Assembly: GCA_050292255.1 (NCBI GenBank) | Contig: JBNKLH010000001.1 | Coordinates: 1-25,300, forward strand | Direction: 5' to 3' | Length of the DNA stretch: 25,300 bases | DNA from: Candidatus Altimarinota bacterium | GTDB lineage: Bacteria; Patescibacteriota; Gracilibacteria; UBA4473 | In this document: in pieces, positions 18,261 through 21,803 of the stretch | Position numbering within the stretch: position 1 is the first letter of the stretch | Layout of the letters: each line of letters starts with the position of its first letter | The notes under the pieces: generated by a model | What the model saw: only the letters and a program-made list of their open reading frames with translations | What the model was told of the DNA's origin: nothing | Databases searched by the model: none | Program-made: the position numbers and the translations under genes

Positions 18261-18570
18261 GTGTTTGACAAAAATGTGAAATTGTATTTTATATTATTTT
18301 ATTTGTTTTGTAAACCCTTTTTGTGTTGAATTTTAAAGATAAGGAGAGCGTATTTTAGCATATACAAAAAAGTGAGCATAAAAATACTTATTATGGATAA
18401 CTCTGCATTGCGGGGCTACTCGAGGCAGTTGTATCCTCGTCATTTCATTTATATTTAGTGATTTTCCTGATTCAGAATGTTACAAATGTTACACGATGGA
18501 GTTAGTATTCAAGAGCCAAATTTTGATTGATAGAAAAATTGAAAGTGTTTTTGTAGTTTTTTCGGATAAC

Positions 18571-19424: not shown

Positions 19425-19567
19425 TGGCATCGCCAAGGGGAATACTCATTTCTTACATCTTTTGTTTTACCGTGGCCTGCGGCATCGAACCCTTTTGGGT
19501 TCAATTCCCACGGACTTACGTCCATACAAAAACCACCATAAACCTCAAGGGCTTATGGTGACTTTTG
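19425..19567 (-). mobile_element. 143 bp mini-insert downstream of tRNA-Glu, ending in a 19 bp copy of the tRNA 3' end
   Basis: TGGCATCGCCAAGGGGAAT occurs at both 19425-19443 and 19568-19586. The core shares sequence with the tRNA-Ser insert. Mobility is inferred. Confidence 0.65.
19528..19560 (-). terminator. terminator directly after tRNA-Glu
   Basis: Minus strand CACCATAAGCC-cttga-GGTTTATGGTG followed by GTTTTT. Confidence 0.8.
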
Positions 19568-19642
19568 TGGCATCGCCAAGGGGAATCGAACCCCTGTTAC
19601 CAGGATGAAAACCTGGCGTCCTAACCACTAGACGATGGCGAC
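19568..19642 (-). tRNA. trnE: tRNA-Glu (anticodon TTC)
   Basis: Cloverleaf with acceptor GTCGCCA/TGGCGAT, anticodon arm CCAGG-TT TTC AT-CCTGG, T arm GGTTCGATT and encoded CCA. Confidence 0.97.
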
Positions 19643-19775
19643 TCTGCGTCGTCGGTGACGGCGCATGTTCCATTTCTTTCTTCGTTTTACTACGAAAGAA
19701 ACTTCACTTGCTTTGTAACCTCCGACTTTTCCCCAAAAAATCTTCACTTCGTTCCGTTTTTTCGGGGGCCCCTTT
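19643..19775 (-). repeat. tRNA-upstream hairpin element, copy A (5' of tRNA-Glu)
   Basis: 19730-19775 (minus) matches 21386-21431 (plus) at 41/46 nt. CACCGACGACG lies 4 nt before the tRNA in both copies. Confidence 0.85.
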
Positions 19776-21376: not shown

Positions 21377-21385
21377 CACCCTAAA

Positions 21386-21507
21386 AAAGGGGCCCCCGGA
21401 AAATCGGAATGAAATGAAGATTTTGTGGGGAGAGGAGGAGGTTGCGAAGTGCTGGGAGCTTTCTGTGAAGCAGAAAACGGAAGACACGCAGCCACCGACG
21501 ACGAGAC
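21386..21507 (+). repeat. tRNA-upstream hairpin element, copy B (5' of tRNA-Ser)
   Basis: Homologous to 19643..19775 on the opposite strand; begins 10 nt after the flippase stop. Confidence 0.85.
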
Positions 21508-21597
21508 GGAGAGTTGCCAGAGCGGTCGAATGGGGCACCCTGCTAAGGTGTTGTATCCTCACGGGTACCGAGGGTTCGAATCCCTCACTCTCCGCCA
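21508..21597 (+). tRNA. trnS: tRNA-Ser (anticodon GCT)
   Basis: Acceptor GGAGAG/CTCTCC, anticodon arm GCACC-CT GCT AA-GGTGT, long variable arm, T arm GGGTTCGAATCCC and encoded CCA. Confidence 0.97.
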
Positions 21598-21770
21598 GCC
21601 TGCGCCAAGGCTTCGGCTGGCAGGCCAGGAGATAAACACGATGTTCTCAAAGAGAATATGGTGTTTTTCTCGTAGAGAAGGGGATTTGGACCCTTGGGTT
21701 CGCGTCGTAGCGGAGCGGAGACCACGTAAAACAAAAGACAGAAGTGAGAAGTAATCCCTCACTCTCCGCC
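21598..21770 (+). mobile_element. 174 bp mini-insert downstream of tRNA-Ser, ending in an 18 bp copy of the tRNA 3' end
   Basis: AATCCCTCACTCTCCGCC occurs at both 21579-21596 and 21753-21770. Core CCACGTAAAACAAAAGA is shared with the tRNA-Glu insert. Mobility is inferred. Confidence 0.65.
21634..21668 (+). terminator. terminator after tRNA-Ser
   Basis: AAACAC-G-ATGTTCTC-aaa-GAGAATAT-G-GTGTTT followed by TT. Confidence 0.7.
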
Positions 21771-21803
21771 TCACTTTTTATTTTTGAAACTTTCTCCATT
21801 CAC

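Follow-up and report, generated by a model that had tools for sequence, protein, structure and literature searches.

A tRNA-linked repeat of the RtT type, with an exchangeable core, behind tRNA genes of Gracilibacteria

The Ser unit and the repeats of Escherichia coli

The small unit that lies behind the tRNA-Ser(GCU) gene in the stretch of DNA analysed here (the window, 25,300 nt) is a tRNA-linked repeat (TLR) of the RtT type in Gracilibacteria. It consists of parts that match the adjoining tRNA gene, which we call the frame, and of a core lodged in the T loop of the frame; as a preliminary description of the window had stated, the same core is found behind unrelated tRNAs. The window is contig C1 of a 1.17-Mb assembly (247 contigs, 42% G+C, 94.7% complete), and its closest named relatives are Candidatus Gracilibacteria.

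The layout of the locus is given in Table 1. Both hairpins that follow the tRNA (21598–21675) fold far better than shuffled sequences (z −6.4), and a hairpin with a T run occupies the place of the second of them (T1) in every unit, in the window's genome and in its relatives alike. The Ser unit begins 74 nt past the tRNA, on the same strand. Positions 21680–21697 form an unbroken run of 18 pairs, 14 of them Watson-Crick and 4 G-T, with 21568–21585 within the T arm of the same tRNA, exactly as first described, while the longest such run in 2000 shuffles of the downstream stretch was 14. The 14-nt tail of the core resembles GAAGYGACGAGT of the type-B cores described below and of the E. coli RtT, and the unit ends in an exact direct repeat of this tRNA's 3' end (21579–21596 and 21753–21770), with 155 nt between the two copies.

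A sister unit with the same core is found behind tRNA-Glu(UUC). It begins 59 nt past the tRNA on the same strand, its core word CCACGGTAAAACAAAAGA (19475–19458, minus strand) represents the same 17/18-nt core as in the Ser unit, and its terminal repeat is an exact 19-nt copy (19568–19586 and 19425–19443). In both units the core closes with exactly 14 nt ending in AGT, directly followed by the terminal repeat, so the common core, spacing and repeat claimed earlier are indeed there. The Glu unit folds better than its shuffles (z −4.2), and a second terminator follows it (19402–19381). The claim that the two inserts share one breakpoint holds only in part: every insert interrupts the T loop after TTCG(A), but the Ser unit breaks at TTCG^AAT, whereas the Glu unit keeps TTCGAT before and ATT after the insert, an overlap of 1–2 nt. 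In most relatives the breakpoint is TTCGA^AT.

The preliminary description knew of no name for these inserts. Their architecture is that of the E. coli TLRs, or RtT repeats (RF00391; PMC8144298), and a match to an already described repeat family is what that description had itself named as speaking against its proposal. [quoted passage not shown] The Ser unit, the Glu unit and all 26 of the 26 standard units that we compared likewise lie downstream of a stable RNA gene on its own strand. The terminal identity is complete in both window units (18/18 nt for Ser, 19/19 nt for Glu), in each case starting from the T loop. As in E. coli, where a locus holds one to five units, there are several loci per genome (seven in the window's genome), tandem arrays and a match of each unit to its own tRNA. 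The order of parts is also the same: T-arm complement with ATGAGAAC, short loop, GGTTCGA, GNA-loop hairpins, purine-rich tail ...GAGT and A(A)TCC. At tyrT-tyrV-rttR of E. coli K-12 the plan reads GGGGAAGGATGAGAAGCTTCG, ACCA, AGGTTCGA, GNA-loop hairpins and ...GCTGAGT^AATCCTTCCCCCACCACCA, and the frame common to the units of E. coli and Gracilibacteria can be written as anti arm GGAxGAGAACC, loop, GGTTCGA, tail GAAGYGACGAGT and A(A)TCC. The cores differ, those of Gracilibacteria being unrelated in sequence to the RtT core. The Gracilibacteria units, moreover, belong to another phylum (in the candidate phyla radiation), are about 100 nt long against 178 bp for the tyrT-distal repeat, and are separated from the tRNA by a terminator that is lacking at tyrT.

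Model searches in the two directions agree with this assignment below the usual thresholds. RF00391 aligned over its full length (model positions 1–130, same part order) with the Ser unit at 21663–21771 (+), where it scored 25.8 bits, and with contig C80, where it scored 24.5 bits. A covariance model made from 20 Gracilibacteria units with the type-B core (model R1, alignment A2) had a single match in the 4.64-Mb chromosome of E. coli K-12, the TLR in the tyrT-tyrV spacer (28.8 bits, E 3e-4); the same model gave 23.1 bits (E 1e-4) for the Glu unit and 13.1 bits for the Ser unit. Three results weigh against our reading: both RF00391 scores fall short of the gathering score of 45 bits, R1 reaches only 10–12 bits on the RtT repeats proper, and the Ser unit (21671–21790) is not more stable than its shuffles (z −0.22). 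The tyrT-tyrV spacer TLR (L005 1364–1487 (−); NC_000913.3 1287363–1287486), at which RefSeq has no feature, resembles the Gracilibacteria units more closely than do the rttR repeats that are annotated.

Searches of the literature (rttR, RF00391, tyrT repeats, T-loop mobile elements) returned only PMC8144298 and a mobilome preprint, which observed raised coverage at tyrT-rttR, as relevant. Few repeats of E. coli have gone unexplained for as long as the TLRs; the literature found describes them only in enterobacteria, and no function is reported for the tRNA-linked ones, an early claim of a role of RtT in the stringent response having been retracted (PMC8144298). To this the present analysis adds their frame in Gracilibacteria, with reciprocal model matches to E. 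coli. From the place of the matching segment beyond the terminator the preliminary description had argued for a role at the DNA level. This argument is weak, since TLRs that lie between two rrn terminators in E. coli are expressed by read-through (PMC8144298). The repeats RrA, RrB and RrF at the ends of rrnA, rrnB and rrnD are of this kind; like the window unit they lie between two terminators and close with 18 nt that copy the 3' end of the stable RNA gene before them. They follow 5S rRNA, carry GGA motifs and bind Hfq and CsrA (PMC8144298), and a T-arm frame is not expected there. The non-coding RNAs of the 3'ETS-leuZ type (PMC8144298), which come from the trailer of a tRNA transcript, would be alike in that respect; they lie upstream of the terminator and have neither a copy of the tRNA 3' end nor a T-arm palindrome.

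Table 1. Coordinates of the tRNA genes, units and unit parts in the window
Feature	Position	Strand	Basis or remark
tRNA-Ser(GCU), intact, CCA encoded	21508..21597	+	ARAGORN; Rfam tRNA 54.2 bits
Hairpin GCCTGC...GCAGGC with cUUCGg tetraloop, directly 3' of CCA	21598..21625	+	sequence, fold
Terminator-like hairpin and T run (T1), between tRNA-Ser and unit	21627..21673	+	fold
5' mini-hairpin CTC-GTA-GAG, then anti arm (complement of own T arm), central TCGA spoiled (ATTTGGA)	21671..21693	+	
Sense T-arm 5' half GGGTTCG (tRNA positions 51–57)	21696..21702	+	hairpin with anti-arm GGACCC
Type-A core, 50-nt insert: GCGGAGC mini-hairpin region, 17-mer, purine-rich tail	21703..21752	+	
Type-A 17-mer of Ser unit, CCACGTAAAACAAAAGA	21722..21738	+	
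14-nt purine-rich tail ending in AGT, Ser unit	21739..21752	+	
Terminal repeat, exact tRNA copy from T-loop A58 to C75	21753..21770	+	repeat search, 100% over 18 nt
tRNA-Glu(UUC)	19568..19642	−	ARAGORN, Rfam; own terminator hairpin at 19526–19567
Glu unit, 2 kb from Ser unit	19425..19519	−	same build, same core
Glu unit: anti arm	19509..19497	−	followed by loop
Glu unit: GGGTTCGAT	19492..19484	−	
Glu unit: core	19483..19444	−	
Glu unit: terminal repeat	19443..19425	−	
Orphan type-B core, decayed, no adjoining tRNA	18395..18490	−	nhmmer E 2.8e-5; R1 11.1 bits

Spread of the family and its host-matched parts

The supposition that the two inserts belong to a family of elements proved right. Units stand behind 7 of the 33 tRNA genes of the window's genome (Glu-UUC, Ser-GCU, Glu-CUC, Leu-GAG, Val-UAC, Gln-CUG and Thr-UGU), two with the type-A core and five with a type-B core (core word GGTTCRA-NN-ATTTGYACCG...), and many more are found in the relatives. 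Type B, the commonest, is present in 16 of the 43 genomes of the family, while the reversed pattern used as a control gave no matches. Nearly all type-B copies lie 60–95 nt behind a tRNA or are the second unit of a tandem (tandems occur in relatives at loci L024, L034, L041, L042 and L064), and every one of them ends in the T-stem and acceptor 3' strand of its own host gene. The hosts comprise 11 kinds of tRNA (Ser, Lys, Gln, Met, Tyr, Glu, Arg, Leu, Asp, Thr and Val) and one tmRNA. The latter is an apparent tmRNA gene (L037; G004:C21:48627-51645) followed by a type-B unit that ends in the gene's 3' end (...TTCCGGCCACCTCCACCA), and therefore units of the TLR type are not limited to tRNAs. The exact type-A core pattern was found, among 401 genomes of the class, in the window's genome only, a result that is misleading, since looser searches found diverged type-A cores behind tRNA-Ser(gct) in genomes G010 and G016.

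Although the assembly of the window is fragmented (247 contigs), a chance similarity or an assembly artefact has a practically negligible probability as a source of this pattern: the 18- and 19-nt repeats are exact, no shuffle gave a run above 14 nt, and the same design recurs in dozens of independent assemblies, closed genomes included, as well as in E. coli K-12.

Two parts of the unit follow the host tRNA. The terminal repeat equals tRNA positions 61–72 at 12 of 12 positions in 15 of the 26 units. The anti arm, compared with positions 59–65, forms on average 4.83 of 7 pairs with its own tRNA and 4.08 with other tRNAs, and none of 10,000 permutations reached the observed sum; the covariation check over 26 units thus upholds the claim that the internal segment tracks the host. 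The anti arm even mirrors unusual loops, such as GC at positions 59–60 (Lys, Asp) or GT (Leu), and it is a true complement of the T arm: that of Gln reads GAGGG, the complement of positions 61–65, and not GGGGG of positions 49–53. A unit behind tRNA-Gln(UUG) in G019 (L025, listed with L024 of G050) has a terminal end of the Gln(CUG) type (ATCCTACC...) and an anti arm that fits Gln(UUG), and looks like a recombinant between the units of two isoacceptors.

At the same time the anti arm decays. We found no excess of G-T pairs (11 G-T against 16 A-C), so that an RNA-type bias was rejected, and orthologous Met units, with cores about 90% alike, differ in their anti arms; the terminal repeat is better kept. 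Given this decay, the anti arm looks less like a helix under maintenance than like something left over when DNA was copied. In every unit the TCGA at its centre is spoiled (ATGAGAA, ATTTGAA), and in the young Glu unit this is the sole difference from a perfect complement. The preliminary description had proposed "retargetable" elements; a reprogrammed guide is not needed here, as the matched parts look like local copies of the tRNA. The idea of a minihelix, in which the arm would also pair with the acceptor 3' strand, was dropped, since over 12 nt only 156 of 312 cells were Watson-Crick; the seeming anti-acceptor sequence of the Ser unit is a small hairpin, CTC-GTA-GAG, present at that place in almost every unit.

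The core is structured. In alignment A2 helix P1 contains, at columns 59–105, all four Watson-Crick pair types (GC 9, CG 5, AT 3, TA 1); columns 65–98 are TA in 9 and CG in 10 units, and columns 68–94 are CG in 14 and TA in 4. Tandem G.A pairs and a bulged A are invariant, and the GAACC/GGTTC helix is paired in 90 of 100 cells. The 3' hairpin of the core is free to vary in sequence but is always kept as a hairpin, with a C-G to T-A double change between orthologous Met units. GNA triloops number 22 on the tRNA-sense strand and 2 on the other (shuffles: mean 4.2, maximum 9). RNAalifold, applied to four sequences, gave no usable structure. From the compensatory changes and the strand-specific GNA loops it follows that a single-stranded form of the sense strand matters; in sequence data RNA and single-stranded DNA are indistinguishable as this active strand.

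These features suit the main alternative that we consider, that of a purely RNA gene which spreads at the DNA level by ordinary duplication, unequal crossing-over and gene conversion, with no T-loop-directed insertion. Compensatory changes, the invariant G.A pairs and bulged A, GNA loops confined to the sense strand, the co-orientation of 26 of 26 standard units with their tRNA and the better keeping of the terminal repeat would all be expected of it, and the second terminator behind the Glu unit recalls the layout T1-RrB-T2 of E. coli rrnB, from which RNA is detected that binds Hfq and CsrA (PMC8144298). Against it stand the poor maintenance of the anti arm between orthologous units, which looks like the relic of a DNA event, and the lack of a known function for the TLRs in tRNA operons of E. 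coli (PMC8144298). Together with the exchanges described in the next section, these points make a purely RNA gene unlikely in our opinion.

Exchange of cores, insertion into tRNA genes and a candidate mechanism

The same core occupies the frames of different tRNAs, and the same locus may hold different cores or none. Among 17 tRNA-Ser(GCU) loci of the relatives, 5 have a unit, with at least 4 core types between them (that of G010 combines a mini unit with a diverged type A), and 12 are empty, including that of G002, whose tRNA is 98% identical. Of 15 tRNA-Glu(UUC) loci only that of G017 has complete units. At the corresponding locus of G004 the orthologous terminator and anti arm are kept with another core, and the terminal repeat is lost. 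The Glu frame is therefore older than its type-A core, which probably came from the Ser unit 2 kb away. In the mixed tandem arrays behind tRNA-Met, G017 and G052 share the distal unit and differ in the proximal one. At this locus the proximal unit's terminal repeat leads into exactly the CCA|terminator junction that in G052 stands directly after the tRNA; as this older junction survives beyond the new unit, a terminator of its own is part of the added piece. Both the presence of different cores in orthologous frames and the terminator brought by each new unit are difficult to reconcile with a purely RNA gene.

A further point against that alternative is a core inside real tRNA genes. In genome G042 (L073; G042:C26:1-2001) at least four tandem copies of a promoter and tRNA-Gln(CUG), with a period of 182 nt, are each split at T54^T55 by a 72-nt core in the reverse orientation, without target duplication. 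When the flanks are joined, ARAGORN calls tRNA-Gln(CUG). The core sits between TTCGA and A of the antisense T loop; because TTCGAA is a palindrome, the core follows TTCGA on its own strand in both orientations. An intact copy of tRNA-Gln(CUG) was not found in this 97%-complete genome, so that either the Gln(CUG) isoacceptor is dispensable or an intact copy is unassembled. The core is of type B, and the locus is one of genus g2, in which G043 has the empty site and G001 and G044 have partial copies. In all units the core follows TTCG(A); as with elements of the IS200/IS605 type, insertion takes place 3' of a fixed stretch of four or five nucleotides and duplicates no target.

Our working mechanism, which we favour with modest confidence, combines a host-derived frame with an exchangeable, T-loop-directed core, the sense strand being the active one. 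The frame would be copied from the adjoining tRNA gene in the order own terminator, small GNA-loop hairpin, reverse complement of the T arm (with TCGA spoiled), short loop and sense T-arm 5' half, and would resume after the insert with the tRNA's remaining part, which runs from the T loop to its 3' end. The tRNA-matched parts would match because they are local DNA copies of the adjoining gene and not a re-programmed guide. The family-specific core, as a second layer, would lodge in the T loop of the frame after TTCG(A) and would be an exchangeable cassette; a DNA-level process directed at TTCGAA, the palindrome of the T loop, would move it from frame to frame and now and then into real tRNA genes. 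New units would join beside the tRNA, each carrying its own terminator. The relevant single strand would be the tRNA-sense one, most likely in the form of a read-through transcript with a tRNA-like 3' end, as in the TLR RNAs of E. coli. Whereas the architecture, its spread through the family, the host tracking, the core exchange, one reverse-oriented insertion into real tRNA genes, the compensatory changes in the core and the strand-specific GNA loops are shown, the chemistry of insertion, the enzyme, the transcription and any function of the units we infer.

A number of observations weigh against this mechanism. The reverse-oriented insertion is documented at a single locus of a single genus and may go back to one event. 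Between the tRNA and the unit there is a terminator. Empty frames, that is, T-arm palindromes without a core, were not found in the window's genome, where 63 T-arm-like words outside tRNAs look like chance occurrences; frame and core may then arise together, which the mechanism does not explain. In the search for an enzyme, no dedicated recombinase was found in the window's genome, which encodes only one Xer-like tyrosine recombinase, together with one weak RAYT-like Y1 gene adjoining recF and one reverse transcriptase/maturase of a group II intron. Y1 transposases (Y1_Tnp) are present in 31 of the 43 family genomes, and no clear link with the units was seen, the gene being found in 13 of 16 genomes with a type-B core and in 18 of the 27 that lack it; in G013 and G017 there are units although a Y1 gene is absent. 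The co-occurrence with tyrosine recombinases or HUH/RAYT transposases for which the preliminary description had suggested looking is thus represented by neither a dedicated recombinase nor a clear HUH link.

A wider form of the same idea can be offered tentatively. TLRs would be the homes of widespread tiny non-autonomous elements homing to TTCGA^A of tRNA genes on either strand; the palindromic frame, own terminator included, would be left by the insertion or repair process so that the tRNA stays intact, and the cores would be swapped like cassettes. The same process would operate in the units of E. coli and of the candidate phyla, possibly through a folded single strand and a host enzyme of the Xer or HUH type. 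If true, such T-loop-homing elements would be a new kind of tRNA-directed mobile DNA. The analysis also adds that the middle of the unit is exchangeable and that the T loop of a real tRNA gene can receive a core in either orientation; exchange, landing and spread lead to a testable hypothesis of a tRNA-directed insertion process and of small RNAs that end like tRNAs.

The same distribution of insertions may be considered from the standpoint of the host. Guard sites had been proposed earlier, and a spare T arm could be kept as a decoy drawing T-loop-directed insertions or integrases off the functional tRNA: about 40 cores lie in spare T arms, real tRNA genes are hit in G042 only, and TTCGAA of the anti arm is always spoiled, as if to leave a single target. 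However, survivorship is enough to account for the lack of visible insertions in essential tRNA genes, the search for an empty decoy found none, and 26 of the 33 tRNAs of the window's genome have no unit. We consider the decoy improbable.

Comparison with mobile elements and minor observations

Integrative elements with attB in the T loop resemble the units in the duplication of the tRNA 3' end from the T loop, in the intact tRNA and in newer insertions adjoining the tRNA. The window unit, in contrast, has neither integrase nor cargo, is about 150 nt in total, and has a core-interrupted T arm and an extra inverted T-arm copy. An integrase with cargo between the intact tRNA and its 3' fragment, and a continuous T arm at attR, were not observed. 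The unit is very improbable as the scar of an ordinary integrase-mediated island or prophage, in which attL and attR remain after deletion of most of the element. Such an origin would account for the direct repeat, as at T-loop att sites, and for the serial addition beside the tRNA, which resembles the traffic at tRNA and tmRNA genes, but not for conserved, structured units of 90–160 nt common to Gracilibacteria and E. coli, nor for a T-arm copy before the repeat that is split by the core where attR would have it continuous. Neither integrase nor cargo was found among the genes neighbouring the units in the window (flippase, NrnA-like and PNP-like genes), and the sole tyrosine recombinase of the genome is Xer-type.

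The miniature elements of the IS200/IS605 group and REP/RAYT systems are similar in that insertion follows a fixed short sequence (TTCGA in the units) and duplicates no target, and in being rich in strand-specific hairpins. They differ in that the core ends of the units are unlike the left and right ends that are known, the target is located in the loop of a hairpin, and no clear Y1 association is seen. With folded single-strand sites, such as integron attC or the attP of CTX phage used by XerCD, there is a resemblance only, namely in the palindromic T-arm frame, the strand-specific hairpins and the Xer-like sole tyrosine recombinase. Several other models of formation were considered (att-type integration, an 18-nt target duplication, fold-back priming, tRNA-primed reverse transcription and casposon-like insertion), and none of them yields frame, core and own terminator together. 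In practice the units look like att scars or incomplete tRNAs, so that programs that search for islands or tRNAs, and assemblers too, can be misled by them.

The cUUCGg hairpin that follows CCA of tRNA-Ser (GCCTRCGC...AGCTTCGGCT...GCAGGC) recurs directly after CCA of tRNA ends or terminal repeats in several genomes, with copies at 21598–21625 of the window, on contig C41 after the Leu(GAG) unit and at L031 (G057) after tRNA-Arg(UCU), and thereby makes up another small family of repeats linked to the 3' ends of tRNAs. The orphan type-B core at 18395–18490 (...GACGAGGATACAACTGCCTCGAGTAG...) lies downstream of a 128-aa open reading frame (ORF) that has no Pfam family. The Gracilibacteria lineage reads UGA as glycine (NCBI table 25), and the table-11 ORF list of the window may, given this reading, hold split ORFs; on contig C203 the table-25 reading joined the RAYT-like frame to recF. 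Upstream of several tRNA genes there is a common leader of about 125 nt, seen in the window at 19643–19775 (−) and 21379–21507 (+) and also on contigs C18, C61, C84 and C110, which ends in CACCGACGACG, 4 nt short of the mature 5' end. Some 180 nt upstream of tRNA-Glu there is a promoter-like sequence, TTGACA-16-TAGAAT. Finally, a repeat unrelated to tRNAs, GAACCGGGGCCGCC-TTTTT-GGGTTCG followed by TTTTTGGCGGCGCAAAAAGGAAC, is present in three copies in the window's genome (C5:4254-4280, C13:6028-6054 and C152:2-28).

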